Below, piece after piece: positions 36,001 to 62,994 of a stretch of 64,000 nucleotides of DNA. A program made the position numbers and the translations under genes. Position 1 is the first letter of the stretch, and each line of letters begins with the position of its first letter. The DNA lies in assembly GCA_028716965.1 (NCBI GenBank), contig JAQUOV010000003.1:140756-204755 (forward strand), in the 5' to 3' direction. The notes under the pieces are model-generated. The model was given only the letters and a program-made list of their open reading frames with translations. It was not told the origin of the DNA and ran no database searches. The stretch is from Candidatus Omnitrophota bacterium (lineage in GTDB: Bacteria > Omnitrophota > Gorgyraeia > Gygaellales > Profunditerraquicolaceae).

Positions 36001-39000
36001 CACCTTCAACCTTACCACTCGGATTATTAATAGCAACAAAACTTGTATCGTTTATTTTACCGGTCTTAGGGGCCCTATTATCGCCTTTATACGTATTGTT
36101 TGCATCCGGAGTAAAAATTAAAGAAGACTTGTTGGAACCTGCGCTATCAGAGTTACCAGGTAATACCCCGATAGCCTCTCCTAATAATGCTGCCTGCGGC
36201 CAGTCAACTTCTTGAGTATTTATTTTTCCGATTTGTGAGGAAACTTGCGCCAACAAATTAGACGCTCCTCGATAATCTCCATTACCCATGCGATCATACA
36301 TCTCATTTAAGGAACCTTGTATTTCTGGGTTTTGCTGATAAATAGGATTGTTGGCGACTTTATCTGTCAAGATACCTGCCTGAGTCTCAAGCGACTTTTG
36401 TGAAGAGAGGAGAACCTTGTTGGCCTGAATCTGAGTATCGATTTGGCCCAATGTTACTTGAGCATCCTTTAACTTGCCATTATTTAATTGGTCTTTGGCA
36501 ATATTAATTAATTGCTCATACTTAGCATAATTTTCAGAGTCTTTCTGCTTTAAATCCTGCGCATAATTATTAAGATTAATCAGAGCGTCCTTTTTAATCT
36601 TATTATTATTAGCAGCAATCTCGGCATTGCGGGCCTTGATCTCAGAATTACGGACATTAATCGCTCTCCTTAATTCGCTAAATCCGTTTTCCGCATCGCT
36701 TAAAGCATCGTAATTATTTAGTTTCATCTTTCTGGCTGTCTCTTGATTACGACTCAATACAGAAGTAAGCACGAATGTGTCTCCTACGCTTGTATAATGC
36801 CTGCCAGTAGGATTACCTATAAACTTGACCCCTGTGGGCCTGCTTATCTCACCGTCTTCAACTGTAGCCGTGTAATCCTCAAGCGGCTTAAGTTTTCTAC
36901 CATCGTTCAGGTATACATTTGAACCTTGATATTCATAGCTTAAGCCTTTTGCACGATTGATTATATTGAAGCTGGCGATGTTTCCGGATTGATCAGTATT
37001 GATAATGGCGGGCATTAAACCTTGCGCGGTCAGAATTCCTTTGTCATTCTCAAAAGCCTTGGCTTGGCCTCTATGGTCCAAGGTATAACCCAAAGCATAA
37101 GAAGCTACTGAAGGTGCCCCACCTATTTCTTTCCCGGGTTCCACCAAAAATGGATTTTGGACCAGGTAATGTAGAATCGGAGTGGATTCTCCCTGGGTAA
37201 GCCTGGTATCCTGGGCAACTATCCGTTTTACCTGTTCACCTTCCCCATTTTTATTCTGACGAATATTAAAGTCCATGCTTTCGGCAAAATTAATTCTTCC
37301 CTGGGGCGCCTGCCAGCCTGTTTTATCATTGTATTCCTTGTATACTACCAGCCTATCCACAGATGTTTTAAGAACACCGTCTTCTTTTGTTAACACTGAA
37401 AATACGCGTGCCTGACTAAGCTGGGTATCAGTAAGCATGCCTGCGCTTTGCTTGGAAGAACCCAGGACGCTTTCAATCTTGCCGTTATTACCGAAAACCA
37501 GTTCAGCTCCGTGAATAGTATTACCCACAAAATTTGCGGTGCTCACCTGATTACTTGCGGTGATCTGAGTTACCAGCAGATTTGTAGTCCCGATATTGCC
37601 CTGCCAGGTTACATTATTATCAACTGTGTCGCCTTTTCTTATATCGCCTACCCCGCTCCATCTTGCGCCGGGACCAAAGGCAAGAGCGGAAGAAACAGCC
37701 ACATCTACCGCATAATTACCGGCTTTATCCCTGCTAAGAAGGATTGGGAAGGTACCCTGCCCTAAAGCGACAGCCTCTTTGTAAAGCTTGCCTTCCCTTA
37801 CAATTGTAGTCCCTGTCAAGTTCATATTTGTGGGATTGAATTTTATTCCTCCAGCAATAGCTTCCCTTTTTCCCGCCATCATCTTGCCATCGCTGACTAC
37901 GGCGGGAACAAATGCTTCGCCTTTTCCCACAAAACCAAAATCGCTGCCTCTTCCCAATACTGACTCGGTATTCAATGCCCCGGTGCGGGAAGTCATGCCT
38001 GTAATAACACCTTCCTTAATTATTCCAGTCCCAAGATTCTGCGAAGAATAAGTACCGGTGGCTGTACTGCTGCTGTATCCAATAATTCCTCCGTTAGCTC
38101 CGGAGAAATTTATCTGTCCCGAGGCGTCTTTAATGGAATCCTTGACGCCATTAGCGCTCCCTACAGCATTAATATGCTCCAATCCGATATTAACATTGGT
38201 GACGCCTGTGTTTAATGAATAAAGGCTGAGTGATGTTCCGTGGGTTTCAAATCCTGCGTTCTGCCCGGAAATCTTTGCTATACCACCATAAGCAATTGAG
38301 CTGGTAGGGGTTGCGGTAGGAAAAGTCATCCTGCCCTGGTTAAGCAACATCTCTCCGCCGCGGCTTAAGACTACTTTATAAGCATCATTAAAACTTCCGG
38401 TATCTACATGCCGCGATTGAAACTCCGGCGTAGCCCCGATTCCATAAAGCTGTTGTCCCCCATATCCGTACACAGTATCACCAGGCATCATCTTGGCGCC
38501 GGTAGATAAATCCCAGGCAATATTATCATTACCGCTCAAGCTTACGCGTATAATATTATCCGTAACATTAAAAGCGTTATATTGGCCATGTGGGCCTTCA
38601 GAAGCCCCTCCTGATTTATTACCCTCAACACTAAAGGATTTGTTGTTCTGCGCCGCATTAACATAGCTATCGCCTGTAACATTAGCCCCCAATGCCTGTT
38701 TTGCAGCAACCGGAGAAAGGCTTATCATCATATTAGCATTTTCCGTAGTAAATGCCCTGCCGGCATTAGCTTTACCACCCATAAAGCTTACCAGGACGCT
38801 TTTCTCTGACAGCCCATCTTCTTTGGCATAGCCTATAGCTACAGGGTTAACAATCTGCCGGGTACCCAAATCAACCAGGTTTCCATTTGCCGTAAGGCCA
38901 AAATCTTGAGAAGCAACTATTGATCTCGAGGATACATCGCCAGTGGGACTAAAACGAGTCCCGGCAGGTATGGTTCGCACGACTTGGCTGTTATCGGTGC

Positions 39001-40798: not shown

Positions 40799-41081
40799 TA
40801 CCTAATGGTATAGAAAACAAAAAAAGTCTTCCCCTTACCCCAGCAGATACTTTCATAATCTTGGCTTTATTTAAGGACATTGTTTTTATTTATTAAAAAG
40901 TTTCTAAAACTTCTTAATAAGATATTAAATAAAAATCCGAGTTGTCAAATATCCTTATTTCCCTTCGACATTCGGCAGCCCGGCTATCCTTTACTTCTGC
41001 TTTTTTAATTTTGGATCCGTGGCTTTGCGCCCCCCGATTACTCGGAGTTTACCTTTTCGTTACTTAACTCTTTACGTTCAA

Positions 41082-41110
41082 AGTATATATATATTTATTA
41101 TACTTGTCAA
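41082..41110 (-). promoter_or_regulatory. Candidate sigma70-like promoter for the giant gene (TTGACA, 17 nt, TATACT)
   Basis: Minus-strand -35 at 41110..41105 and -10 at 41087..41082; this implies a leader of about 275 nt. Confidence 0.3.
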
Positions 41111-41372: not shown

Positions 41373-41445
41373 TTTTTTAGGCTAGATTGGACATTAATTT
41401 GTAGGTTATCTGATAAATTTAACAGATTGGACATTAATTCTATGA

Positions 41446-42519
41446 TTATTGCTTCAAATTATTCTTGTAGCTATCTTTGAAAGTCTGGTCATAATTCTTA
41501 GCCGCAGGATAGGATGGTAAACTCCGGAACTGTGATTGCAAATTACTGATATCTTGATTATTTGTCTGTTGATTAGCAAACATTGAAGACATAGCCTTAT
41601 CTACCGCGTAATTCGTAGGAGTATTTACAACATAGTAGAGCCCCGAAAAAGCATTCTTTATAATATAAGCGTCCTGCTTATCCACCATATTCTTCGTGAT
41701 ACTTAGCACCCCATAATTAATCAAAGCTGAAGGGACACTTCTTAAAGTAGTTATCGCGGCTCCTTGCAGCCCTTGGGTCACCCTACTAAGGTCAAAGCTG
41801 CCAATATTGGAAAAACTAAATCCGTCTGAAGAGCTACTAAGCCCTCCTACCAAACCACCTGTAACAAGACTTCCTGTTAAATTTGCTAAGCTTCTCGTTA
41901 AGGGGTCGACATTTCCTTCTTTATCCGCGCCGCTCATAAGTATAGCACCTTCAACGCTCCCTTCAAGAAGCCCTATGCCCATACCTTCAAAAGCGCTTAT
42001 TGTGCCGGCAATTGATCCGTTAAGAGTTTGAGCTACCCCTAAACCACTGCCAAAAGAACTACCATAATGTCCTGGGCTCAACCCACCACCGACAACTCCG
42101 CCTGCTATCGAGCTTATAAGAAGAGTTGACCTCGGGTCCCAACCATAATAGCTGCCTGCGACCCCTATAGCATTCTGCACCTGTCCCACAGCCGTGCTAT
42201 TTATAAAGTTAGTTCCCCAGCTATTAATGGTACTTAGGCTAGAAATCGAGTTCATAAAACCAGTTCCAAAGGTGGAATTTGGAGAAAGCGCGCCTCCAAT
42301 ACCTTGAGCGATAGCTCCACCGATTGCGGAAGAAACCAGCCCTATTGCTGTGCCTGCTGCCCATTTCCCAAAGTCAAACTCTACAAGATCCCCTCCGCCA
42401 TCCCTGCTCCTGTAAGCCAGTGAATCTCTTGGGAAAACAAATGACAAGGCAAAGGAAAATATAACGCAAACTGCGAAGACCTTAAATGCCTTTCCTTTTT
42501 TATTGCCTGAATTATACAT
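41446..42519 (-). CDS. Exported glycine/serine-rich protein (signal peptide), unknown function
   Basis: ATG 42519 with GGAGAG Shine-Dalgarno. N-terminal signal sequence, then a long G/S/A/N-rich sequence like the Gly-rich segments of the giant protein. Confidence 0.65.
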   Translation of the reverse strand: MYNSGNKKGKAFKVFAVCVIFSFALSFVFPRDSLAYRSRDGGGDLVEFDFGKWAAGTAIGLVSSAIGGAIAQGIGGALSPNSTFGTGFMNSISSLSTINSWGTNFINSTAVGQVQNAIGVAGSYYGWDPRSTLLISSIAGGVVGGGLSPGHYGSSFGSGLGVAQTLNGSIAGTISAFEGMGIGLLEGSVEGAILMSGADKEGNVDPLTRSLANLTGSLVTGGLVGGLSSSSDGFSFSNIGSFDLSRVTQGLQGAAITTLRSVPSALINYGVLSITKNMVDKQDAYIIKNAFSGLYYVVNTPTNYAVDKAMSSMFANQQTNNQDISNLQSQFRSLPSYPAAKNYDQTFKDSYKNNLKQ

Positions 42520-42554
42520 TTATTTCTCTCCTATACGCATAACCCTAAGAACTT

Positions 42555-43796
42555 TTAGGGAAAACATTTAGGGTAATCTATTTTAAACTGGTCTATCTGC
42601 TCCTGCTTCTTTTCAGCCGCGCTTCTGGCTTCAGCCGCTTTTTCTTGAAAATCTTTAGCCTGATCCTCCAAGCTTGGGATCTGTGTTTCTTCTAAATCAT
42701 CAGCTGATTGGTCTGCCTTATCCGCGGATGCATATAAAGAAGCTGCCTTATCGTGTAATTCCTGCGCTTCATCCTCCAATAACGCCGCCGCCGCATTAGC
42801 TAAAGCTGCCTTACTGCGTAGGTCCGCTATATCAAACTCCAGTTGCGCTGCTTCTTCAAGCACACAACAACAACTGCCTTCCCCATCCTCTTCACAACTA
42901 ATCATACAACCACTGCCGCTATAACAGCCCGGGATAGTTGCTTTCTTGATATTGGCTTCATTGCCTTTGTTAGCCGCTTGTGTGTTTAATTCAGCCCCGT
43001 CACTGCGCAGAAGGCCTATCTCTCCTTCCAGTTTAGCTACAATCTCCATCATATAAGGGCAAGACTGGGCCCCTGAGAAACAACCCGGGAAGTTGGTTTT
43101 GTAGAAATCAATATCCGCTTGCTTAGCATTCGCTTGCGCTTCTTTTTCCGCTGCCTGACTGTACAAAGAATCCCTTTCTTTCTCTAATACCGCTATTTCA
43201 TTCATTGTCTGGCAAGCTGGCTCGCTTCCTGATACACAACCACAACCGCTATAACAACTTGGGTTGGCTCTTTTTAAAGCATCCAACTCATTCTTTTTAA
43301 TATCTGCTTGGTCATTAAAACTCTTTGCCTCATTCCTTTTAGCCAGGGCTTGGCTGTCTTTTTGATTAGCCTTGCTTTCATAATCAGCTGCCCGAGTCCT
43401 CAACTGTTCGGCCTGTTCTCTTAATATGGCAATCTGTTTATCTAAATCCGTTGCCGCAGTATTTAAATCAAGCGCAGATTGCTCAAATGATTCCGCGCGC
43501 TCATTTAACTCCTTTATTTCGCCTTCTAATACCTCTATCTTACTTAACAGCCCGGGGCATATATCTTTAGGAGGGATAATCGGTATCGGAGGAGTACCCG
43601 GGGTATCATTATAACTAACCTCCGTAACACCTTTTGCATATTGCTCTCCTTCTCCAAATACATCCGCGCTTTCCCGAAACTTTTGCTGCATTGCCCTTAC
43701 AATATATATCCTCATCCCTATCAGCACTGCCGCTACTATGGCAATCAGGATAACGTACTCTGTAAAAACCTGCGATTTATTTACCTGCTTTTTCAT
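42555..43796 (-). CDS. Flp-family N-terminal module fused to a 360-aa coiled-coil region with repeated Cys motifs (candidate pilus-associated adhesin or tip protein)
   Basis: N-terminus SQVFTEYVILIAIVAAVLIGMRIYIVRAMQQKFRESADVFG is the same family as the small pilins. Repeated ANPSCYSGCGC, FPGCFSGAQSCPYM, IPGCYSGSGC, YPKCFP motifs between coiled-coil blocks. Confidence 0.65.
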   Translation of the reverse strand: MKKQVNKSQVFTEYVILIAIVAAVLIGMRIYIVRAMQQKFRESADVFGEGEQYAKGVTEVSYNDTPGTPPIPIIPPKDICPGLLSKIEVLEGEIKELNERAESFEQSALDLNTAATDLDKQIAILREQAEQLRTRAADYESKANQKDSQALAKRNEAKSFNDQADIKKNELDALKRANPSCYSGCGCVSGSEPACQTMNEIAVLEKERDSLYSQAAEKEAQANAKQADIDFYKTNFPGCFSGAQSCPYMMEIVAKLEGEIGLLRSDGAELNTQAANKGNEANIKKATIPGCYSGSGCMISCEEDGEGSCCCVLEEAAQLEFDIADLRSKAALANAAAALLEDEAQELHDKAASLYASADKADQSADDLEETQIPSLEDQAKDFQEKAAEARSAAEKKQEQIDQFKIDYPKCFP

Positions 43797-44682
43797 ATTG
43801 CACCATCACGGTAGTCGTATTCTTTAATATGCCTACGGATGCCTCTTTCGGTCCGGAATCTGCCAGGACTACAATACAAAGGTCGCCATGTTGATTGGAA
43901 AAATTAAGCTCTGACACAACCAAGCTCGCAGGCTTAATTGCCTGCTGCACCTTATCATTCTTCGGGTAATCATGTAACATCCCGGTTAGGTCAATCTCTC
44001 CTGAAGCCAGCTCCTTAAGAGGTTTTTCCTCTGCAAGAGACCAGCCATAATCAAGCATTTTATCCTTATAGAACTCCTTTACTTTATCAATATTATCTTT
44101 GACAAAATAGGTTGCCTGCATAAACCCCGGATTCTCCGATAGCGCGATTAAAGCAGCATCCGGATAAACCGGGGCAACATCAATTTTAGGTTTCCCCGAT
44201 AGTTTAGGAATAAAATCATCTTCAGACCGGGGCTTTTTCGTTATCCCCTTCTTTCCTCGCGCGATAGTAAATCTTGTCTTGCCATCCTGAATTGCCCCTT
44301 GCGGAAGAAAATCTATCATAAGGATCTCCCCATCTTTTTCAAAAATAGAATTCAATGTCATTATATCCTTTAAGGATTCCGGTATCTTTAAATTAGGTAT
44401 TTTTTCCATCTCTTTTAATAATTCTTTTTCCTCCCAGTCCAAAGCAGGAAGCTTTAAACGGAAAAAATCGCTTATGGCTTTGGCATCCTGGCTGCTGGCA
44501 TAATGTTTTAATACAAACTCTGTGCCGGCAATATTCCTTGTTTCCTGAAAAACTTCCTCGGCCCCCCAAGGAAGAGGGATAGAATTCCTATCCCACCATG
44601 CAGAATACAAAGGATGCGTTGATAAAAACATTATTAAAAGAAAAAAGCCGGTTAACCACGCAACTTTAAGCCTAAAAAACAT
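43777..44682 (-). CDS. Hypothetical exported protein
   Basis: ATG 44682 with AAGGAGG Shine-Dalgarno; N-terminal hydrophobic signal sequence; 20-nt overlap with the downstream gene. Confidence 0.6.
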   Translation of the reverse strand: MFFRLKVAWLTGFFLLIMFLSTHPLYSAWWDRNSIPLPWGAEEVFQETRNIAGTEFVLKHYASSQDAKAISDFFRLKLPALDWEEKELLKEMEKIPNLKIPESLKDIMTLNSIFEKDGEILMIDFLPQGAIQDGKTRFTIARGKKGITKKPRSEDDFIPKLSGKPKIDVAPVYPDAALIALSENPGFMQATYFVKDNIDKVKEFYKDKMLDYGWSLAEEKPLKELASGEIDLTGMLHDYPKNDKVQQAIKPASLVVSELNFSNQHGDLCIVVLADSGPKEASVGILKNTTTVMVQYEKAGK

Positions 44683-44691
44683 TTAACCTCC

Positions 44692-46074
44692 TTAGTACTT
44701 ATCAACATCTACTATATCGGAACCATACCTTGGATTAGGCGGATCTATGCTTCCTCTTCCTGAAAAATCAGCAACAGCATAACTGGCAGTATCGGGATAA
44801 CGGGTCTTCCATAACCCGAGGTCTGCTCCCTCATGGCTCTGTTTTGTATCAACCCGCGCGAAATGGTCATGGTCAATATCATTTATCCAGCAATCAAAAA
44901 GAAGCAAGGTATCCGCTTCACTACTGCTGCTGAATGTAAGGCCGGGCAATAATCCTGCCAAAGCTAAAACTAACAAAGCAAATGCTGCTGTTCCTGAAAC
45001 AATCGCCGCAGAGTTGCCAGCTATACCGGCAGGCAGCTCAAGCTGTGCCATCGCAGCCAAATCTATACAAGCAGCGCAACAAACAGCCGTTGGGGGCGTA
45101 GGAGGACAGCATGGAGTCTGAGGACAAGCACCAGCTAACTGATCACTAGCGAAACTGTATACTCCTGAAGCTTCAGCTAATTCTAAAGCCGCAGAATCAA
45201 TCAATAACCTGCTCGGAAGAAGTAAAAGAGTTGATATTGCCAAGGGTGGCAAGACCGTAATAGTTAACTCAAACGTATTGACATTTTTAGTAAACACATT
45301 GGAATCCACTGAATGGGACCTTCCCGGAACATCTTTCTGTCCGTCTTTCCAGGAATAATTATAGTGCCCGTTATCTCCTATGCCATCCATAAAATCAACG
45401 TAGGAATCCCTATAGCCGTTCTTTTTTAAGGTATCTGTGACATCTTCGGGAGAGCTTCCTGCCTTTAATTTAGAGCTAATACCGCTGTTAGAGAAAACAA
45501 ACCCATGCCCATTCTTGATAGCCGAACTCCTGCCTTTTATTGCCATGCGCCTGATACGAAGATAAAGATAATACTGGGCAATGCTGGCAGCGGTAATCGC
45601 AAGCCCAATAGCAATAATAGCAGTGCTGGCATCTTCTAATATTCCTGCTGCCGTCAGAGAAAGTCCGGTTGCAACATAAGCGTCGGACGCTGCAGCGCAA
45701 GAAGTAGTGCAAAAGGATGTTGCTTCAGCTGTTATTCCAAGAGATAATGCAGTTGATGCGTACGAATAAGCCATTACCAAGTTATAGAAAACAAACATGA
45801 AGGAAAGGGCTATGGACATATAAGCTGACCAATATGTAGTTATCATAAGGCTGTTTTGCACAGCCACGCTGTTAAACACATTTGCCATTATCGCCCCTGT
45901 TGCCAGGGCTCCGGCATCAGCAGCGTTGGAAGTATCTGTCTTGGTCATCGCCACCTTAGATAAGTTAACAGTAACCAGAGCCATAATTATCACGATCACC
46001 AGGACCAGTATGTATACAGGGGCAAGCTGGCCTTTGTTGTATTTATTTTTGTGATCATGGAAATACGTAAACAT
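44692..46074 (-). CDS. Membrane protein, possibly TadG-like pilus assembly protein; Cys/Pro-rich segment
   Basis: ATG 46074 with GGAGAG Shine-Dalgarno. N-terminus NKGQLAPVYILVLVIVII resembles the Tad_N/TadG N-term; CPQTPCCPPTPPTAVCCAAC. Confidence 0.45.
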   Translation of the reverse strand: MFTYFHDHKNKYNKGQLAPVYILVLVIVIIMALVTVNLSKVAMTKTDTSNAADAGALATGAIMANVFNSVAVQNSLMITTYWSAYMSIALSFMFVFYNLVMAYSYASTALSLGITAEATSFCTTSCAAASDAYVATGLSLTAAGILEDASTAIIAIGLAITAASIAQYYLYLRIRRMAIKGRSSAIKNGHGFVFSNSGISSKLKAGSSPEDVTDTLKKNGYRDSYVDFMDGIGDNGHYNYSWKDGQKDVPGRSHSVDSNVFTKNVNTFELTITVLPPLAISTLLLLPSRLLIDSAALELAEASGVYSFASDQLAGACPQTPCCPPTPPTAVCCAACIDLAAMAQLELPAGIAGNSAAIVSGTAAFALLVLALAGLLPGLTFSSSSEADTLLLFDCWINDIDHDHFARVDTKQSHEGADLGLWKTRYPDTASYAVADFSGRGSIDPPNPRYGSDIVDVDKY

Positions 46075-46076
46075 AA

Positions 46077-46349
46077 CTACTCTCCTCTTAAAACCTTATC
46101 TTCCGTCAGCTCCTCCGGTTTATGAACCGGCCACTGCAGGGTATAAGTATCAGAGGATGTCCCCGCGATTACCCTGCCGGCATTATAACTCTGCTGGCGC
46201 TGCACAATCTGCTTATTTGCCCAGAACCATATCTGCATTATCGCAGCAAACAAGAGCACTATCCCGGCAAAAACAAATGCTATTTCAATCATGCTTTGCG
46301 CAATTTCATCGCGCTTTAACTTTTTTAACCCTAAAACGGAGTAACCCAT
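46077..46349 (-). CDS. TadE-like pseudopilin
   Basis: RDEIAQSMIEIAFVFAGIVLLF matches the TadE_N consensus. Confidence 0.6.
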   Translation of the reverse strand: MGYSVLGLKKLKRDEIAQSMIEIAFVFAGIVLLFAAIMQIWFWANKQIVQRQQSYNAGRVIAGTSSDTYTLQWPVHKPEELTEDKVLRGE

Positions 46350-47113
46350 GTCTTCTCCCTGACTACCTCATTACCTGAATTACTCTGGCTATATTTATAC
46401 TGCCCGTCTGGATCAAGGTACACACCCTGCTTCACCTCATACAATATTCCCTCTTCTATTGGGGGGCTTTCATAATCGTTATCACCGGACTTCTTCTCTA
46501 CTATCTTGTACGGCACGGCAGTAACAATATCATCTTTAAGCCTAGAGGTCCTTTTATTGGTAATAGCATAGGTATCCTCGCTCTTCACATTCGTCTCGTT
46601 AAAAAGAGTATCGGACTCGGTATTCATATTTTCAGTTTGCAATACCCAATACGTCGCTCTTTCCTCGCCTGTTTCCGGATCTATCCTTTCGTGCCCTTTA
46701 ATATAATCATTATACTTAAATACTCCTTCGTCTTCATTGACCCTGAATACAAGCAAGCTGTCCGCAGATGAGCCTTTTGCCGATTTAGGTATAGCCCAAT
46801 ATACACTGGCAGAACCTGTTTGCGTAACATTACTGCCCTGCCTATAACCACCTGCCAGGTTTATCTGGTGCCTGTTCTGTAGAAGGGTATACTGCACAGA
46901 TGCCCCTGCGCCGTCTTCAGCGTATCCAGTATAGGAGTTAGCCTTCTCTAACGCCCTGCGAAAAGCCTCCATCTGCACATATTGCCTGTCATTAAGTTGC
47001 TGTATAAAAGAAAGCAGCGCCCCAAATACAAGCAATATCAAGGTGCCGAATATTGCCATCTCCGCTACTGCCTGGCCTTTCTTATTCGCGCATATCACTT
47101 TAATCACCGCCAT
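46331..47113 (-). CDS. TadE/TadG-like pseudopilin (start trimmed to ATG 47113; track ORF extended to 47227)
   Basis: KKGQAVAEMAIFGTLILLVFG, a TadE-like motif right after the chosen start. Confidence 0.55.
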   Translation of the reverse strand: MAVIKVICANKKGQAVAEMAIFGTLILLVFGALLSFIQQLNDRQYVQMEAFRRALEKANSYTGYAEDGAGASVQYTLLQNRHQINLAGGYRQGSNVTQTGSASVYWAIPKSAKGSSADSLLVFRVNEDEGVFKYNDYIKGHERIDPETGEERATYWVLQTENMNTESDTLFNETNVKSEDTYAITNKRTSRLKDDIVTAVPYKIVEKKSGDNDYESPPIEEGILYEVKQGVYLDPDGQYKYSQSNSGNEVVREKTWVTPF

Positions 47114-47540
47114 CCTCTTCAATCTCTTCGCCTGTTTCAGGGTCGTATTCAATCTCCGGGCCAGGAGCAACATATCCTTCTGAAGCAGGGACAAGATTTC
47201 CCGGCGTATCAGGAACATCTGTATCAACTATTCTACTTGTTACCTTATAGCTCACTTCCTCCAAACCTGAAACGCGCAAACCTCCACCCGTGAATAATTG
47301 GGTATCGGTAGTTAAATCATATTTACTTTCAGCATTACTTTCAGTTCTAGCAGTAGGGGAGATATCCGTCTCCTGTCCCTTTCCTATAAATACATCTGTT
47401 AAATCTTTGACCTTCCCCTGTATGCCGCGCTTAACATAAATATTCATTCCCCACAGCACCGCGGAGATTATTCCTAAAACTATCATATACTCCGCAAAAG
47501 AAGCAGAGGCCCTGCTTAGAATAACCTTCCCCTTTTTCAT
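47100..47540 (-). CDS. Flp-family pilin paralog with C-terminal acidic extension (start ATG 47540)
   Basis: MKKGKVILSRASASFAEYMIVLGIISAVLWGMNIYVKRGIQGK; starts 2 nt after the stop of the upstream gene. Confidence 0.6.
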   Translation of the reverse strand: MKKGKVILSRASASFAEYMIVLGIISAVLWGMNIYVKRGIQGKVKDLTDVFIGKGQETDISPTARTESNAESKYDLTTDTQLFTGGGLRVSGLEEVSYKVTSRIVDTDVPDTPGNLVPASEGYVAPGPEIEYDPETGEEIEEDGGD

Positions 47541-51021: not shown

Positions 51022-51230
51022 CTCGCTAAGCCGGCTAATATTCTGGCCTGACCTAATATAAGATAATCAAAGAAAACAAATTTTGGCGTATATAGTCCCG
51101 TGGCCTTGCGCATCCACTTTCCTCCGATAGCGGAATTGCTTTTTTCTTATTACTTTTAAAATGCACCTAAAATATAACACCTATTAGTAAGCATGTCAAT
51201 AATACTTAACCTCCTTTAAGAAAGCGTTTT

Positions 51231-52844: not shown

Positions 52845-52932
52845 ATTTTCTCCAGATTGGACATTATTAGCCAATATTAATGTACAATAAAATAGTCAAT
52901 ATGTCAACAATAATTCAGTTTGGACATTATTA

Positions 52933-52990
52933 GGGACGCTTTTGCACCTAAAGCAGGGACGTTTCTTAGCCTAATCGGAAAACTGTCCCC
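52933..52990 (-). repeat. REP-like element copy B (inverted relative to A and C)
   Basis: Reverse complement GGGGACAGTTTTCCGATTAGGCTAAGAAACGTCCCTGCTTTAGGTGCAAAAGCGTCCC matches copies A and C. Confidence 0.8.
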
Positions 52991-53057
52991 CCCCCTCCAG
53001 GAATATTTTGTTAGATTTTATTATATTGCAGCGTCTATTATAGCGGAGGTGATAAAT

Positions 53058-53540
53058 ATGCCAAGAAGTGCAAGATTAATTCTAGATAACGCATGCTATC
53101 ATTTGATGGCACGAGGGAATCAAAGACAATATACTTTTATTGAAGATGAAGATTTCAATAAATACCTTGAGCTATTAAAACATTATAAAAACAAGTATTA
53201 TTTTAAACTGTATGGTTATTGCTTAATGCCAAACCATGTGCATTTAATAGTAGAGCTTAATAAATCATCTATACTGGGAAAGATTATGCAAGGACTGAAC
53301 TTAGCATATACAATCTGGTTCAACAAAAAATATAATAAAGTGGGCCATCTCTGGCAGGGAAGATATAAGAGTAAGCTGATTCAAAAGAATAAATACTTGT
53401 TAGATTGCATAGAATATGTGGAGTTTAATCCAATAAGATCAAATATGTGGAAATCTCCTTTTGACCATCCTTGGAGCAGCTGGAAAGAACGCATGGGATA
53501 TAAAGAAAACAGCCTCGTAGATACTCCTAACTTAAGCTAA
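53058..53540 (+). CDS. REP-associated tyrosine transposase (RAYT, IS200-like Y1 HuH transposase)
   Basis: HuH motif LMPNHVHLIVE; catalytic Tyr region WQGRYKSKLI; GGAGGTGA Shine-Dalgarno 6 nt before ATG 53058 (track start 52920 is an over-extension); flanked by inverted REP copies B and C. Confidence 0.85.
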   Translation: MPRSARLILDNACYHLMARGNQRQYTFIEDEDFNKYLELLKHYKNKYYFKLYGYCLMPNHVHLIVELNKSSILGKIMQGLNLAYTIWFNKKYNKVGHLWQGRYKSKLIQKNKYLLDCIEYVEFNPIRSNMWKSPFDHPWSSWKERMGYKENSLVDTPNLS

Positions 53541-53598: not shown

Positions 53599-53942
53599 TA
53601 ATCTATTAAGGTGATGTGGTCGCCTGTTTGGGTAGAGGTTCTTTCCAGGGTTCCTGCGGGAAGTTCAATACTAAATAGCGCGTTTAAATAAATACCGCTT
53701 ATCCTAAACGGCCGCATACTGCGGATCTCCCTTGTAATTCTGTTATTGGAATCAACAAAGATTACGTCTATGGCAAATTGCATAAAGAAAGTGTGGATTG
53801 AATTACAGGGTTTGATTATTAAAGCTTGTCCTTGTTTAAGCTCCCTGCGGTTTAACAAGCCAACCATCCTTCTTAACGGAGTTTTGGCAATAGCCGCATC
53901 CTCTGCTAAGCTTGTACCGCGGTCTTTGTTGATTATTTTCAT
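53598..53942 (-). CDS. DUF192-family protein
   Basis: HTFFMQFAIDVIFVD matches the DUF192 core; the ATG overlaps the TGA of the upstream ATPase gene (ATGA). Confidence 0.65.
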   Translation of the reverse strand: MKIINKDRGTSLAEDAAIAKTPLRRMVGLLNRRELKQGQALIIKPCNSIHTFFMQFAIDVIFVDSNNRITREIRSMRPFRISGIYLNALFSIELPAGTLERTSTQTGDHITLID

Positions 53943-56101
53943 AAAGAAGGGTTAAAAATATCGTCGGAGATCGAGATGCCCTGCACCCTGAGCTGTTCCA
54001 CAAAAGAGGGGATGTAACCTGTAGGTTTGAATTCACCAAGGACTTTGCCGTCCTTGTCCACTCCTGTCTGTTTGAATATAAAAATATCCTTTAAACCAAC
54101 ATGCACCTCATCAATCATGCCGATCATCTCTGAAACCTGCGTTACCTTTCTTGAACCATCGGATAACCTGGCAGTATGGATAATAATATTGATTGCCGAG
54201 GCGATCATCTCCCTGATTGCACGCACAGGAAGTTCTGCCCCCGACATAAGGATCATAGAATCCATCCTGGAGATAACGTCCCGGGTTGAATTCGCATGTA
54301 TCGTAGTCATAGATCCGTCGTGGCCTGTATTCATTGCCTGAAGCATATCCAGAGTCTCCGCCCCACGGCACTCGCCGATTATAATCCTATCGGGGCGCAT
54401 ACGCAGAGAATTGCGGAAAAGGTCCCTGGAGGTAATCGCGCCTTTCCCTTCAACGTTAGGAGGCCGTGATTCAAGGCGCACCCAATGTTCCTGTTTTAAT
54501 TTCAATTCCGCAGCATCTTCAATAGTGATAATACGCTCAGTAGGCGGGATAAATACTGACAGCACATTCAATACGGTTGTTTTACCCGAGCCCGTCCCAC
54601 CGGAAACAATTGTATTCTTTCTGGATAAGATACATGCCTGCATAAAATCAGCCATGGGTTTGGTTAAAGTATTTAAACGTAATAAGTCGTCCGTAACCAG
54701 CCGCTCGCGTCCAAATTTTCTTATAGTCAGCGTAGGGCCGGTTAAAGAAAGCGGAGGGATGATCGCGTTAACGCGTGAGCCGTCGGAAAGCCGGGCGTCC
54801 ACCATGGGGGCGCTTTCATCAATGCGCCTGCCTAAAGGAGCGATTATACGTTCAATAACCTGGCGTACCTGTTCATTGGAAAGGAACCTCTTGGGGGATA
54901 ACTCTATTCTGCCGTGGCGCTCAATGTATATCTGGTTTTTATTATTGACCATGATATCGGAAATATCCGAATCATTGACTAAATCCTCCAGTGGCCCAAG
55001 CCCCAATGCCTCATCAATTATCTCTTTGACCAGCCTTTTCCTTACATCGGAAGGAGAAAGGAACACCCCGGTTTCTTCCGCCAGGGCATTGGTAATTACC
55101 TTCTCGGTTTTTTCTTTTACGGCCTGAGCCTTGGCCGGGTCACTCATATCAATCTCTAAATGCTTAAGGTCAAGTTTTTCAATCAACCTTTGATGTATGC
55201 GCTTCTTTAATTCAATGATCTCATCCGGCTCCCTATCTTCACCTTCCGGGGTAAAAGCCTCATGGCCTAATTTAAATTTCTTCCAGAAATCCCCCTCTTT
55301 TGCAAAAAAACCCTCGCCTGCTGCAGAAGGCAAGGCAATCTCCTGTCGCTTAAGAAATAAACTCTCATCCTCGCTAAGCAGTGTGGCTAATTTCTTAATA
55401 CTTTGGCTGGCTCTACAATTAAGGTTGTCTATGACAAGTGGTATCCGCCTGTTTAATGCTAAACCCGCAGCCTTGCCTTCTGAAGATATACGGCTGATTA
55501 TCTCGCATGGCACAGCAGCACGCACCTCCTGCCAGATAACCCCGCCTAAGCTCTGGGCGCGGTTTAAAATGATCTTAATCATGCCCAAGGGGATATAGAG
55601 CGACTGCAAAATATCCAAAGACCACTTTGTTTGATAGACGGATAATATATCCGGTGTTACTACCAAAAGTACAAGGTTGGCGTGGTTGAAGACGGAAAAC
55701 AGGCTTTCGGTAAAAGCGCGTCCGGCGTCTATGATTATATAGTCATACTCCTTTTCCAACGCATCCAGAACAAGCTTGATCTTTTCGCTGTCTACACGAA
55801 ATATCTGGTTGGGTTTTAATACTGCGGGAAGGAAATCAATACTGTATTTCTCAATATAAATCAGGTCTCCTTTTACGGAGGCCTTTGTGGGGTCCTTTTT
55901 CAATGCCTCTGCCAAATCAAGCAGCGATTTGTCAGCCGTAATATCAAGCCAGCGGGGCATGTCTCCTGCGCCCTGTAAATCTAAATCAATAAGCGCTACT
56001 TTTTTACGCAGGTAATAACCCAGGCTGACAGCCAAATTCGTCGCAAGCAAGGTTTTGCCTACCCCGCCCTTTGTGCTGAATATGACTATTGTTTTTGACA
56101 T
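53939..56101 (-). CDS. Fusion protein: N-terminal TadZ/CpaE-like ParA/MinD ATPase domain plus C-terminal TadA/CpaF secretion ATPase
   Basis: N-term IVIFSTKGGVGKT (deviant Walker A). C-term VSGGTGSGKTT, RMRPDRIIIGECRG, AMNTGHDGSMTTIHANS (VirB11/CpaF family). Confidence 0.85.
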   Translation of the reverse strand: MSKTIVIFSTKGGVGKTLLATNLAVSLGYYLRKKVALIDLDLQGAGDMPRWLDITADKSLLDLAEALKKDPTKASVKGDLIYIEKYSIDFLPAVLKPNQIFRVDSEKIKLVLDALEKEYDYIIIDAGRAFTESLFSVFNHANLVLLVVTPDILSVYQTKWSLDILQSLYIPLGMIKIILNRAQSLGGVIWQEVRAAVPCEIISRISSEGKAAGLALNRRIPLVIDNLNCRASQSIKKLATLLSEDESLFLKRQEIALPSAAGEGFFAKEGDFWKKFKLGHEAFTPEGEDREPDEIIELKKRIHQRLIEKLDLKHLEIDMSDPAKAQAVKEKTEKVITNALAEETGVFLSPSDVRKRLVKEIIDEALGLGPLEDLVNDSDISDIMVNNKNQIYIERHGRIELSPKRFLSNEQVRQVIERIIAPLGRRIDESAPMVDARLSDGSRVNAIIPPLSLTGPTLTIRKFGRERLVTDDLLRLNTLTKPMADFMQACILSRKNTIVSGGTGSGKTTVLNVLSVFIPPTERIITIEDAAELKLKQEHWVRLESRPPNVEGKGAITSRDLFRNSLRMRPDRIIIGECRGAETLDMLQAMNTGHDGSMTTIHANSTRDVISRMDSMILMSGAELPVRAIREMIASAINIIIHTARLSDGSRKVTQVSEMIGMIDEVHVGLKDIFIFKQTGVDKDGKVLGEFKPTGYIPSFVEQLRVQGISISDDIFNPSL

Positions 56102-56110
56102 GGCAAACGA

Positions 56111-57718
56111 TTAATTATTTCTAAAGTCTATCGGTACATCAACCCAAAGTTCCTGAGATTCTATCTGGGGAGGGAAAGGAGGATAAGGCGCCTGTTTTTT
56201 GGCTATATCATAAGCAGCGTCATCTAAAACCTTATAGCCCGAAGATTGCACTAATTTGATGCCTTTTAAAGCCCCGCTTGCGGTAATATTAAGGTTCAGC
56301 CGTACATTACCTTCCCAACCCGCGTTCTTGGCTTGTTGGGGATAATAAGCTGATTTAACTATCTTTGATTTAACTATCCGTACATAATTTCCGAGACTTC
56401 CCGGTAACTCCGGCTCGTTAAAAGATTCTTGTTTTTTCTCCGCGACAGAATCGGAAGAAGGTTTCTTCCCTTTAGGCTCATCCCGAGCGACTATAGTAGG
56501 TACGAGTGTAACGAATAATTCCGTATCATCTCTTGCCCCTTGCCCTTTCCCTATTTTAGTTACTCTTTGCCTGAAGAATAAGCCTAAAACCGGGATATCC
56601 GCAAGCCAAGGGAATTTACGCAGGTCTTCTTCTGTCTTTTGCTTAATCAAGCCGCCTATTGCCATGATCTGGCCGTTATTAAGGTAAAGTTCGCTGGAGA
56701 CGGAACGCTTGCTCAAAGGATATGCCTTAGCAGTAGGCGCGTCTTCTGATCCCAGGATCTCAGCTTCCCCTACGTCACTGACCTCTACATACAAATTTAA
56801 TTTTATTCGGTCATCTTCGGTTACAGAAGGCTTTATCTTTAACTTAATGCCGTATTCTTTATATTCCACGTTTGTGGAGGAGCTGCCTCCTGTTGACACG
56901 GCTGTAGTGAAAACAGGTTTTTCACCTCCCACAAGCAATTGTGCTTCTTTATTAGTTTGACAAGATAGCCGAGGACGAGAGAGAATACGCGCCTTGCCTT
57001 CCTGTATTAAAGCATCCAGCTTTAAAGTAAATGCGGCGCGGGTTATATTGGCAACATGAAATAACTTTCCCCAGGTTGTCCCTGCCGCTTGAATACCTGA
57101 AGAACCCACTTCAGTTAAGGTCATTGAACCCGGCCATGAAAACCCAAGGGTCTTGGTAGCATCTTTATTAAGCTCCAGTATCTGCACATCAATTTCTATT
57201 ACTGTTTCCTCTTCTTTGACCTCGACAAGATCAGATATCTTATCTTTAAGGTCGTTTAAGGCCAAGGCGATCCTTTCTTTATCCTTGGAAGTCTTTACCC
57301 TGCCCAAAATAATGACTTTTCCTTCGTCCTCTTCTGCCTTGGTATAAACCTCCGGCAAATCCAATTGGCCTAATAAATTATCCACCCGCTGCTTGATCAA
57401 GGTCATATCTTCCCTTATTACTTTTATATTTTCGGACTGCTCGCCAAAAGTATCCCAGTATACCAATGAAGTCTGTCCTGGTGATTTTGCGGAAAGAGCG
57501 ATCTCTGTTTCAGTGACATTAGAAATATCCGCTACCAGGGGATTACCGATAATGACCCTGGTGGGCATTTGCGTAGGGATTATTTTGGTCTCCCCCACAA
57601 GTAATTTTAATGTTTCCTGCGGGGCGTCGCCGGCTAATATGGGACCCACCAATACCAGCATCAAGACCGGAATCAAGCTTACCATGATAAAAGCGTTTAT
57701 TTTCTTACACATATTCAT
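56111..57718 (-). CDS. Secretin (CpaC/RcpA-like) with C-terminal TonB_C domain
   Basis: Secretin core LLVGGEKPV ... FPWLADIPVLGLFFRQR ... ELFVTLVPTIV. C-terminus YYPQQAKNAGWEGNVRLNLNITASGALKGIKLVQSSGYKVLDDAAYDIAKKQAPYPPFP matches the TonB C-terminal consensus. Confidence 0.85.
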   Translation of the reverse strand: MNMCKKINAFIMVSLIPVLMLVLVGPILAGDAPQETLKLLVGETKIIPTQMPTRVIIGNPLVADISNVTETEIALSAKSPGQTSLVYWDTFGEQSENIKVIREDMTLIKQRVDNLLGQLDLPEVYTKAEEDEGKVIILGRVKTSKDKERIALALNDLKDKISDLVEVKEEETVIEIDVQILELNKDATKTLGFSWPGSMTLTEVGSSGIQAAGTTWGKLFHVANITRAAFTLKLDALIQEGKARILSRPRLSCQTNKEAQLLVGGEKPVFTTAVSTGGSSSTNVEYKEYGIKLKIKPSVTEDDRIKLNLYVEVSDVGEAEILGSEDAPTAKAYPLSKRSVSSELYLNNGQIMAIGGLIKQKTEEDLRKFPWLADIPVLGLFFRQRVTKIGKGQGARDDTELFVTLVPTIVARDEPKGKKPSSDSVAEKKQESFNEPELPGSLGNYVRIVKSKIVKSAYYPQQAKNAGWEGNVRLNLNITASGALKGIKLVQSSGYKVLDDAAYDIAKKQAPYPPFPPQIESQELWVDVPIDFRNN

Positions 57719-60286: not shown

Positions 60287-60315
60287 TTGACCACCCCATA
60301 TTTACATTATATACT
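60287..60315 (+). promoter_or_regulatory. Sigma70-like promoter TTGACC, 17 nt, TATACT for the FIST operon; predicted near-leaderless start
   Basis: -35 at 60287-60292 and -10 at 60310-60315; ATG at 60323, so about 7 nt from the -10 to the start codon. Confidence 0.4.
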
Positions 60316-60322
60316 GTCTGCC

Positions 60323-61510
60323 ATGAATGTAAGTTTTGGTTTTAGCCAGACCAAAGACCATATCCGGGCAACCAATGAAGCGGTCGGGCAGGCGATAATC
60401 GGCCTTAGGGGTATGCACGCGGACCTGGCAATTATCTTCACTACAATAGAATTTACACATCCTCTTGTATTAAAAACCGTCAACAACCTGCTTGGCGAAA
60501 TTCCCATATTAGGCTGCAGCAGCCTGGGAATTATAACTAACAAAGGGATATTTAAGCATGGGTTTGCCATACTGCTTATCGGATTAAGCCAGCAGATGTT
60601 CTTTAATGTCGCCTCGGTCAGGGATATCAATAAGAAAACCGCTCTCCTGGCCGGAAGAGAACTGGGAGAGAAACTGCTTTATGGATATAAAACTGTGCGC
60701 AGGAATTTAAGCATAATCTTTTCGGATGGTCTGATCTCCGAAGGAACCAGCCTGATCAACGGACTACAGGAAAATTTGGGCAGGAGCTTTCCTCTTATCG
60801 GAGCACTTGCCTCGGATAACTTTACCTTCCAGAAAACATTTCAATATTTCAATAAAGAACTGCTTAGCGAATCCTGCTGCGGGGTACTTTTCGGCGGCGG
60901 GATAAATTTCAGCCTGGGCATCAAACATGGTTGGAAACCCTTGGGGAAAGTACGCTGCGTTAATAAATCGGAGGGAAATGTAGTTAAAGAGATCGACGGC
61001 CGGCCGGCGGTAAAACTTTATGAAGATTACCTGGCTAAAGATACGCTTGAATTATCCGAAGAGCTGCGGCGCATATCCATCTTTTACCCTCTGGGGATTT
61101 ACTTGCCGGGAGAAAAAGAATACTTGCTGCGCAACATCATCTCCATAAAAGATGACGGTTCGCTGGTCACCCAAGGGGACATACCGCAGGATAGCAAAAT
61201 CAGATTAATGATCGGCACCAAAGATTCCTGCCTTGAAGCCGCAGCTGAATCCTGCGAAGACGCAGAAAGAAACCTTATGGGCCAAAAAGCAAAATTTGTG
61301 ATGGTCTTTGATTCCGCGTCAAGGTTTTCGCTTTTAGGCAGGCAATGCGTAAAAGAACTTGAGATAATAAAGGAAACGTTCGGCGAAGAAACCCCCTTAG
61401 TAGGCATTTATACTTATGGGGAACTTGCCCCCCTTCAATCCATAAGTTATCTAGGGCACAGCCATTTCCATAACCAGAGCATAGGCGTTCTGGCTGTAGG
61501 AGGTCAATAA
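60323..61510 (+). CDS. FIST domain sensor protein (start ATG 60323; track TTG 60287)
   Basis: FIST_C-like VGIYTYGELAP...SHFHNQSIGVLAV, and a FIST_N-like N-terminal half. Confidence 0.7.
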   Translation: MNVSFGFSQTKDHIRATNEAVGQAIIGLRGMHADLAIIFTTIEFTHPLVLKTVNNLLGEIPILGCSSLGIITNKGIFKHGFAILLIGLSQQMFFNVASVRDINKKTALLAGRELGEKLLYGYKTVRRNLSIIFSDGLISEGTSLINGLQENLGRSFPLIGALASDNFTFQKTFQYFNKELLSESCCGVLFGGGINFSLGIKHGWKPLGKVRCVNKSEGNVVKEIDGRPAVKLYEDYLAKDTLELSEELRRISIFYPLGIYLPGEKEYLLRNIISIKDDGSLVTQGDIPQDSKIRLMIGTKDSCLEAAAESCEDAERNLMGQKAKFVMVFDSASRFSLLGRQCVKELEIIKETFGEETPLVGIYTYGELAPLQSISYLGHSHFHNQSIGVLAVGGQ

Positions 61511-61511
61511 A

Positions 61512-62990: not shown

Positions 62991-62994
62991 AACT

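Follow-up and report, generated by a model that had tools for sequence, protein, structure and literature searches.

The giant genes of Omnitrophota, some of which encode over 40,000 residues, rank among the largest genes known. A type II secretion-like locus lying upstream of such genes and composed of gspD/E/F-like genes, rcpC, a gene for a Rotamase_2 peptidyl-prolyl isomerase and small genes with class III signal peptides is described by West-Roberts et al. 2023 (bioRxiv 10.1101/2023.11.21.568195), who also already report that the N-terminus of the giant protein contains a C39 domain; Seymour et al. 2023 (PMC10066038) describe Tad complexes and giant open reading frames (ORFs) in Omnitrophota, reported to be predators or parasites, and in the searched passages of the two papers the remaining proteins of the locus are termed 'less well conserved'. 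The present analysis defines two unannotated genes, here called A and B, which lie at the junction between the Tad machine and the giant gene in a stretch of 64,000 nucleotides (nt) from a Candidatus Omnitrophota bacterium (contig JAQUOV010000003.1; hereafter the window). Gene A is probably a variant of the modular or adapter minor pilin of the Tad tip. Gene B belongs to an uncharacterised family seen here only in Omnitrophota-labelled or unlabelled sequences. Both proteins have 100% matches in a 222-kb Candidatus Omnitrophica contig.

Two groups of described systems are close to gene A. In the Kil/Tad predation pilus of Myxococcus xanthus (Herrou et al. 2025, PMC12075869) the TadE/F/G-like proteins KilL/M/N form interchangeable tip complexes, characterised by variable distal domains and many predicted disulfides, and these complexes are coupled to the shaft by KilK and by KilO, of 59 amino acids (aa), which are short, fully helical Flp minor pilins acting as adapters (PMC12075869). 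Modular type IV pilins, on the other side, have been described in Streptococcus sanguinis, in the form of PilB and PilC (PMC8179133, PMC9934059). The reading of gene A that we consider modestly probable is that of a modular Flp-type minor pilin of an Omnitrophota Tad-like (type IVc) machine, whose C-terminal rod would be a tip accessory, with B as an exported partner, this last point being a weak inference.

A Tad-type (type IVc) pilus locus, of the same type as the published Omnitrophota type II secretion-like/Tad locus, occupies the minus strand of the window between ~59.5 kb and 41.4 kb. The machine genes encode a Rotamase_2 peptidyl-prolyl isomerase, RcpC/CpaB, a secretin, a ParA-like/CpaF fusion ATPase, a DUF192 protein and two T2SSF platform proteins; the pilins are encoded by seven small or medium-sized ORFs sharing the N-terminal pattern (A/G/S)↓QxxxEY (the arrow marks the cleavage site), followed by a hydrophobic helix. 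This locus type is already known; no description of a rod-bearing pilin, of the B family or of the riboswitch discussed below was found in the searched passages of bioRxiv 10.1101/2023.11.21.568195 and PMC10066038.

Genes A (413 aa) and B (357 aa) were both found on the minus strand, with the boundaries given by an earlier first-pass annotation of the same DNA (Table 1), which had also recognised a Flp-like N-terminus in gene A. The latter assignment agrees with the sequence: the head of the protein, MKKQVNKS↓QVFTEYVILIAIVAAVLIGM, carries Glu at +5 and Tyr at +6 and reaches a Kyte-Doolittle maximum of 2.76, and residues 1-80 match five pilins of the same locus with E values from 1.4e-14 to 2.8e-7. 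The layout of the head, namely a basic leader, a small residue at -1 and a hydrophobic alpha1N of ~20 residues, is the same in all A orthologues. The pilin head is followed by an invariant extension of 25 residues, which is the only part common to all A orthologues; a near-invariant head up to ...SADVFGEGEQYAKG (residues 34-58) is shared by 14 A homologues (34-100% identity), six of which carry a taxon name, in all cases Omnitrophota, and residues 34-58 are kept even in bare orthologues of 56-72 aa, which end just after this segment. In four genomes the locus tags of genes A and B are adjacent. Each of the 112 structural pilin ORFs in correct register has Glu+5, and the TadG-like protein never does; Glu+5 is kept in 27 of 34 distinct A-position sequences, about seven having Q, G, A or M instead; such a partial loss fits a low-copy subunit located near the tip.

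A scan of metagenome contigs with patterns derived from the head yielded 38 loci, in which the tail of the A-position protein takes several forms. It is absent in the bare pilins of 56-72 aa; it consists of one helical hairpin, with a first Cys where it begins and a second in a Y-P-x-C-F motif at the end, in proteins of 158-176 aa, of two long helices with 4 or 8 Cys in those of 265-314 aa, and of four helices with 14 Cys in those of 410-413 aa, which include the protein of the window, whereas a form of 475 aa carries two Cys ~390 residues apart. In one lineage (L051, 7020-7946) the pilin head is joined to a ~250-aa HExxH domain (KIAHEATHII), giving a protein of 308 aa in all; this domain, which is not a coiled coil, has no Pfam match. 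Since the tail can be swapped for nothing, for shorter or longer hairpins or for an HExxH domain, it is expected to be an exchangeable tip accessory and not a core adaptor, and what best matches the sequences is a rod that would have been added, in particular lineages, onto an adapter-type head. No consistent pattern between the length of the A tail and that of B was found once related loci were discounted.

In ~35 independent contigs the gene order around gene A is invariant: TadE-like, p90, TadG-like, p301, A-position pilin, B-family gene, a gap of ~600-700 nt and a giant ORF, the giant ORFs of these contigs having a homologous N-terminus; the same neighbourhood is found around distant B homologues, but two or three distant loci differ in having TadB and TadC after the A-position gene. 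Homologues lacking any Tad context, which the first-pass annotation had named as a possible counter-example to its proposals, were not encountered: a Tad context was present in 9/9 look-ups, which also showed a large ORF nearby and of which five concerned distant B members, in five species-representative genome loci and in all of the 38 metagenome loci long enough to judge.

The tail of gene A had been described as a coiled coil of about 360 aa punctuated by Cys motifs, and the motifs are indeed there: NPSCYS, FPGCFS, IPGCYS and YPKCFP occur at residues 178, 236, 288 and 408, and the pattern P.C[YF] is matched four times in gene A versus 0.03 times expected from its composition, and once in the 13,600-aa giant. 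Four cysteines (C80, C239, C309 and C411) are invariant in the 14 A homologues, and the segment 182-308 contains Cys at positions 185, 187, 195, 239, 246, 291, 297 and 301. Gene A has 14 Cys (3.4%) and the TadG-like protein 9, compared to 0-2 in the other envelope proteins of the operon, none in mature B and a Cys content of 0.22% in the giant; moreover, the number of Cys is even in 21 of the 22 complete Cys-bearing A tails. Even counts, together with the concentration of Cys in gene A and in the TadG-like protein, argue for paired, putatively structural disulfides.

The coiled coil is also found, shorter than first assigned: the hydrophobic period is 3.5 in both long helices, consistent with heptads, and the helices predicted by AlphaFold2 (residues 80-177, 193-235, 247-286 and 309-407) cover ~330 aa. 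Two of these helices are ~98 residues long (~14.7 nm each) and the other two are of ~40 residues. The mean predicted local distance difference test score (pLDDT) is 75.5, with values of 87-97 over most of the long helices and below 50 for residues 34-76, residues 47-79 being devoid of predicted secondary structure. A Foldseek search of the PDB with the model of gene A gave no match at E <= 0.001, and the matches obtained were antiparallel intramolecular coiled coils only (chemoreceptors, the MukB elbow, Rad50 and dynein stalks).

As for the arrangement of the helices, the favoured model is that of an antiparallel, disulfide-stapled rod of ~14.7 nm. In two-unit homologues the lengths of the Cys-bounded segments covary (87/87, 87/87, 87/85, 94/94, 94/91, 101/100 and 109/107), with the exception of one pair, 87/95. 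Both long helices contain conserved helix-breaking Pro/Gly residues at a distance of 36-43 residues from the base (Q-I-P-x-L in H1, T-Q-I-P in H4), and since these positions align only if H1 and H4 are antiparallel, they support such a rod. In this model C80-C411 would clasp the base of the H1/H4 rod, the Cys clusters 181-195 and 291-311 would cap its far end, and the H2/H3 hairpin, an insert which is missing from A homologues of 242-327 aa, would thicken the distal half. The alternative is that the tail consists of three tandem, disulfide-closed hairpins of ~100 aa. The single-unit A orthologues clearly have a mid-segment loop, which counts for such a tandem-hairpin topology and against the long rod; in gene A, however, treating each Cys-bounded segment as a hairpin of its own results in unequal arms (39/55 and 62/33), while the helix breaks align under an antiparallel H1/H4.

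The head of gene A would be processed and then take its place in the pilus where the TadE/G-type tip complex joins the shaft, a placement suggested by analogy with KilO and the similar KilK 'adapter' Flp minor pilins; the rod would stand out from the pilus tip towards the prey, serving as a rigid probe, spacer or adhesin stabilised by oxidation. The proposal that gene A bears a disulfide-rich tip or adhesin is in this sense plausible as far as display at the tip is concerned, and has a precedent in the Kil/Tad pilus; the protein has a pilus-type head and a Cys-rich coiled coil and is encoded at the end of the minor-pilin block.

Gene B had been described as a G/S-rich exported protein, and it conforms to that description: Gly and Ser account for 14% and 13.4% of the whole sequence (18% and 14% of residues 36-300), charges are few, Cys is absent, and a classical Sec signal with an 18-residue hydrophobic core (SLA↓YRS; Kyte-Doolittle maximum 2.33) is present. 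The family, which comprises 25 close homologues (43-100% identity) and 118 clusters at 50% identity, is defined by an N-terminal module of ~220 residues made of the signal peptide, the motif AxA↓xRSxAGGG(D/E)xxxFDxGK and Gly-zipper-like helices, among which QVxxAVGxxGxYYGWxP and SSIAGGVVGGGLNPG; matches of the B profile are N-terminal in nearly all members. Among 141 family members G41 is conserved in 94%, G42 in 90% and G43 in 87%, and a GGG-type motif is present in 17/17 loci (in L050 it was missed by the regular expression and recognised by eye as SGGG). Members with a taxon name are all from Omnitrophota, the rest being unlabelled. Family lengths are bimodal, ~300-450 aa and ~800-1,555 aa, with one member of 2,435 aa. 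A homologue search with a broad N-terminal B profile returned only the known close relatives. When 21 members were compared with Pfam, three of them showed one isolated weak match each, to unrelated families; the long forms gave one ChaN/Tiki-type haem-binding domain and one sub-threshold match, and nothing general. The possibility that B is a polymorphic effector with a varied payload was considered and rejected: the extensions of the long forms are mutually homologous, 50 out of 51 falling into one BLAST component, which speaks for a conserved addition and not for a varied payload.

In the loci examined the B-family gene is placed between the Tad genes and the giant gene. One locus (L025) is arranged differently, since its riboswitch separates gene A from gene B, which directly adjoins the giant gene; this layout indicates that B can belong to either transcription unit. 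B may, weakly, be taken as an exported protein associated with the envelope or a membrane, which would work with the giant protein or be handled by the Tad-like machine, and we infer that it is not a pilus subunit. A short motif, ATGTCCAATCT, is repeated two or three times just after the stop codon of B (~41385-41440, minus strand) and is kept in 5/5 aligned loci (alignment columns 40-95).

Genes A and B are, as had been noted, the last two ORFs before the giant gene; they are nevertheless separated from it by a conserved spacer, measuring 644 nt from gene B to the giant in the window, which contains a promoter and a riboswitch. The two hexamers of the promoter are identical in 5/5 aligned loci. 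The aptamer of the riboswitch, which belongs to the cyclic di-GMP (c-di-GMP) class I, matches RF03167 with 62.7 bits versus a gathering score of 59, over model positions 1-80, and an aptamer of the c-di-GMP-I class occurs in the same region in 8/9 other loci tested. Downstream of the aptamer of the window, a hairpin overlapping its 3' side is followed by a U-run, which suggests a terminator-type switch before the giant gene; judged from its promoter and riboswitch, the giant gene is a predicted transcription unit of its own. Four loci carry a second c-di-GMP-I aptamer, placed immediately ahead of the first small pilin gene, its counterpart in the window (51022-51150, minus strand) being sub-threshold at 17 bits; from its position, the operon of pilins, TadBC, minor pilins, A and B may also respond to c-di-GMP. 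The word 'riboswitch' is absent from the West-Roberts preprint (bioRxiv 10.1101/2023.11.21.568195), and a literature search combining Omnitrophota, riboswitch and c-di-GMP yielded only unrelated ComFB papers.

Two further observations concern this region and its possible regulation. A conserved upstream ORF of 31 codons, MSLNKAKIMKVSAGVRGRLFLFSIPLGNDNA (40785-40880, minus strand; also at 11633-11728 in locus L006), has a stop codon overlapping the ATG of the giant gene (40796-40798) and may be a leader peptide or a translational-coupling element. On the plus strand at 60287-63930, divergent from the Tad locus, lie genes for a histidine kinase, a FIST-domain protein and a GGDEF response regulator (GGDDF variant), which could be a local source of c-di-GMP for the riboswitch.

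The Peptidase_C39 domain of the giant protein of the window covers residues ~130-270 (ORF part 37202-40801, minus strand; 37 bits, E 3.6e-9); both its Cys (PCGSKAL) and its His (DHYVLV) are present, and the domain is kept in 15 of the 17 neighbouring giants compared. Neighbouring giant ORFs were called at 41,759 aa (L003, from 14488 onward), 31,023 aa (L005, from 11703 onward) and 9,914 aa (locus of P0126), and the first ~900 residues of these three giants are homologous to those of the giant of the window (E down to 1e-272).

Several results weigh against the view of gene A as a modular minor pilin carrying a tip rod, with B as a partner. The Pfam scan of gene A called no Flp or class III signal domain, one pilin paralogue of the locus matching Class_IIIsignal below cut-off (18.3 vs 23.7 bits), and no gene for a prepilin peptidase (peptidase A24) was recognised among the ORFs of the window that were scanned. 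The AlphaFold2 model of gene A has a predicted template modelling score (pTM) of 0.47, with the head and the junctions below a pLDDT of 50; that of B is all-helical with a pLDDT of 50, its helices are moderately hydrophobic (Kyte-Doolittle 1.0-1.45), and B has no match in Pfam (even at E <= 10), in NCBIfam or in a sequence profile search of the PDB. Taken to the extreme, the fact that Pfam and NCBIfam return generic coiled-coil noise only for A and nothing for B could mean that both genes are low-complexity or coiled-coil artefacts devoid of a specific function; this is extremely improbable, since sequence, order and frame are conserved over dozens of contigs, at 34-84% identity and with invariant motifs. 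A different use of the same parts is conceivable, in which gene A is an uncleaved inner-membrane anchor and its ~15-nm rod a periplasmic strut or ruler serving a type II secretion-like export of B or of parts of the giant. The length of the modelled rod is comparable to the width of the periplasm, the locus is called type II secretion-like in bioRxiv 10.1101/2023.11.21.568195, and the lack of a recognised prepilin peptidase in the window would agree with an uncleaved anchor; yet the cleavage and assembly motif of pilins is kept, the head is homologous to structural pilins, bare-head orthologues of ~60 aa cannot be struts, and a tail varying from 0 to ~400 residues is unsuited to a fixed ruler, which makes this use of the rod very unlikely.

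Another role, suggested by the first-pass annotation and in our opinion unlikely, is that A and B tether the giant protein to the pilus or hand it over, the Cys-rich end of A or the Gly-rich core of B binding Gly-rich parts of the giant. In almost all loci with sufficient flanking sequence the A-position gene, B and the giant gene are neighbours, and in L025 B lies downstream of the riboswitch, directly against the giant gene. The composition of B had been said to mirror that of the Gly-rich segments of the giant: one stretch of ~480 aa (residues ~2380-2860; hydrophobic, 20% Gly) does have a B-like composition, but homology between B and the giant, tested as a candidate link, was rejected, BLASTP and a hidden Markov model (HMM) of the B family with all filters off both giving no match, so that composition only is shared. 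In addition, the giant has its own promoter and riboswitch, and the form of the tail does not track that of B across loci. The idea of the coiled coil of A as an adaptor between pilus and giant is not supported, and the coiled coil is in any case no obligatory adaptor, since it is dispensable in many lineages: sister lineages keep B and the homologous N-terminus of the giant with only a bare head of 56-72 aa; an adaptor role of B is partly supported, by synteny.

A more far-reaching hypothesis compares the rod, at the tip of a filament, to the coiled-coil tip proteins of type III secretion, and takes B as a membrane-active Gly-zipper protein directed to the prey envelope and possibly matured at GGG by the extracytoplasmic C39 domain of the giant. 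The modelled antiparallel coiled coil, the export, low charge and GxxxG richness of B, the GGG conserved just after its signal peptide, the C39 domain with Cys and His following the signal anchor of the giant, and the predatory or parasitic habit of Omnitrophota reported in PMC10066038 all point in this direction. Nevertheless, no likeness of gene A to the tip proteins LcrV/IpaD/SipD was seen in the Foldseek search of the PDB (E <= 0.001) or in Pfam, and no match to translocators or Gly-zipper families in sequence or fold; in particular, the Gly-zipper Pfam models do not match B of the window, whose 14 GxxxG represent a shared composition only. When B was examined for a double-glycine leader, a hydrophobic Sec signal was found, with Y-R-S-R-D before GGG, residues that do not fit the double-glycine consensus (a leader of 15-30 residues that is not hydrophobic, with hydrophobic positions -4, -7 and -12 relative to GG); the Gly run is what the two have in common. 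The helices of B are weakly hydrophobic, and the mutually homologous extensions of its long forms do not form a varied payload set. The GGG motif is also kept in L050 and L051, two loci with no C39 match in the part of the following large ORF that was sampled; with C39 in 15/17 giants and GGG also in the other two, there is little variation to compare, and what there is stands mildly against a link between C39 and GGG. Such a pair of tip protein and translocator is, on these grounds, quite unlikely, and the complete scheme, in which the Tad machine is a contact-dependent attack device bearing a stapled ~15-nm rod at its tip, with B freed at GGG by C39 to insert into the prey envelope and c-di-GMP co-regulating the parts, is to be regarded as improbable. 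Were it true, A and B would correspond, on a pilus, to the needle-tip protein and translocator of type III secretion, and the pilin block and the giant 'Archaeovorin' gene would be under the joint control of c-di-GMP riboswitches, the giant being deployed on contact. The modular minor pilin with a tip rod is the reading retained here.

Table 1. Positions of the features of the A/B junction in the window (nt), and of the aptamers in other loci (positions in the respective locus).
Feature	Position	Strand	Basis or remark
TadE-like protein and p90 (rest of the minor-pilin block)	TadE-like 46331-47227; p90 46077-46349	-	p90 = 90 aa
TadG-like large minor pilin	44692..46074	-	Pfam Tad PF13400; no Glu at +5; 9 Cys
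p301, exported ~300-aa (301-aa) protein	43777..44682	-	directly upstream of the A-position gene; stop overlaps start of gene A
Gene A, probable modular Flp-type minor pilin, 413 aa	42555..43796 (stop included)	-	ORF; 14 homologues
Gene A, residues 1-33: basic leader, putative prepilin cleavage KS↓QVFTEY, hydrophobic alpha1N	43698..43796	-	sequence, pilin homology
Gene A, residues 34-58: invariant head extension RAxQxKxRxSADVFGxGEQYAKG	43623..43697	-	alignment columns R34 to T58
Gene A, residues 59-79: Pro-rich low-confidence linker	43560..43622	-	variable in alignment
Gene A, residues 80-181: predicted long helix H1, from C80 (CPG) to NPSC181YSG	43254..43559	-	AlphaFold2; C80 invariant
Gene A, residues 182-308: Cys-rich junctions and predicted short H2 (193-235) and H3 (247-286)	42873..43253	-	distal insert
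Gene A, residues 309-413: CCC start, predicted long helix H4, terminal YPKC411FP	42558..42872	-	AlphaFold2; C309, C411 invariant
Gene B, exported Gly/Ser-rich helical protein, 357 aa, short family form	41446..42519	-	ORF; 25 close homologues
Gene B, residues 1-35: Sec-type signal peptide (KKGK, hydrophobic core, SLA↓Y)	42415..42519	-	family consensus AxA
Gene B, residues 36-52: conserved motif xRSxxGGGxxxEFDxGK after the signal peptide	42364..42414	-	family alignment
Gene B, residues 53-230: Gly-zipper-like low-charge helical core of short and long forms	41830..42363	-	14 GxxxG, 18% Gly
Sigma-70-like promoter of the giant gene, TTGACA-17 nt-TATACT	41082..41110	-	11/12 consensus positions
c-di-GMP-I-GGC riboswitch aptamer, 5' leader of the giant gene	40970..41062	-	RF03167
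Giant ORF, >13,600 aa, runs off the window	open frame 40801 to 2; ATG 40796-40798	-	signal anchor, then Peptidase_C39
Riboswitch in other loci	L001 11400-11496; L003 14233-14320; L006 11446-11542; L024 4940-5035		
Riboswitch in other loci	L025 11046-11149; L028 15125-15219; L035 12353-12445; L044 11327-11428		L025: upstream of B
Second aptamer in other loci	L003 2932-3062; L025 2131-2264; L028 2107-2234; L035 1506-1626		

Among the neighbours of genes A and B, the TadG-like minor pilin has G↓QLAPVY in place of Glu+5 and carries the Cys clusters FCTTSC and ACPQTPCCPPTPPTAVCCAAC; it is the only Cys-rich envelope protein of the operon besides gene A. The stop codon of p301 and the start of gene A overlap by 20 nt in the window and by 14-20 nt across contigs; p301 of the window has no Pfam match, and the precomputed Pfam listings of its homologues contain only faint or weak matches to AF_1845. 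In the machine part of the locus, the secretin (56111-57718, minus strand) has a TonB_C domain at its C-terminus, and the CpaF-type ATPase (53939-56101, minus strand) has an N-terminal ParA/MinD-like (TadZ/CpaE-like) domain fused to it. An IS200-like Y1 transposase gene is found on the opposite strand between the DUF192 gene and the gene of a 547-aa helix-turn-helix (HTH) protein (52920-53540, plus strand, in the window; 493-975 in L003; 286-768 in L006), and its presence at the same site in three different genomes indicates that it is a conserved component of the locus, as opposed to a recent insertion.

Gene A would thus represent a new kind of accessory among the exchangeable Tad tips of predators, namely an all-helical, Cys-stapled rod on an adapter-type pilin, and gene B a conserved orphan component; together with the c-di-GMP riboswitch, they offer concrete, testable parts for the study of contact-dependent predation in an uncultured phylum.

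The comparison with known systems can be drawn for each of the two genes. CofB of enterotoxigenic Escherichia coli and TcpB of Vibrio cholerae are, like PilB and PilC, modular type IV pilins. Gene A has in common with them an N-terminal pilin module and a grafted C-terminal module, which in those pilins is functional, the proteins being low-abundance and often tip subunits; however, PilB, PilC, CofB and TcpB keep a globular alpha/beta pilin domain, accompanied by vWA, lectin or beta-rich modules, while gene A is modelled as an all-alpha, Cys-stapled rod, and with no beta structure in its AlphaFold2 model, which consists of a helix, a disordered linker and helices only, it is not a member of that family. 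For B, the nearest likeness is offered by CdzC/CdzD of Caulobacter, glycine-zipper, surface-associated contact-killing proteins which are matured by a transporter with a C39 domain. B is likewise rich in Gly-zipper-like motifs, exported and genetically linked to a C39 peptidase domain, and CdzC/CdzD are used in cell-cell antagonism; these are, however, small peptides with double-glycine leaders which follow type I secretion, whereas B has 357 aa (up to 2,435 aa in the family) and a Sec signal.

Among the systems studied by experiment, the Kil/Tad pilus is the closest to gene A. In both cases the bacterium is predatory or host-dependent and has a Tad-type machine, the TadE/TadG-like cluster is accompanied by the gene of a short helical Flp-like pilin (the A-position gene follows it in ~35 contigs), and the tip proteins have variable distal modules and many predicted disulfides; moreover, judged by their layout, the bare A orthologues of 56-72 aa match the adapter pilins KilK and KilO in size and type. 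The differences lie in the position of the variable part, which in Myxococcus is a domain of the large KilN/TadG-like pilin, while A of the window (413 aa) bears a ~330-aa rod on an adapter-type head, in the intercalation of the exported non-pilin p301, and in the fact that the system of the window is known from genes alone. By analogy, gene A of the window most likely works like an adapter pilin of the KilK/KilO type onto which a rod has been grafted.

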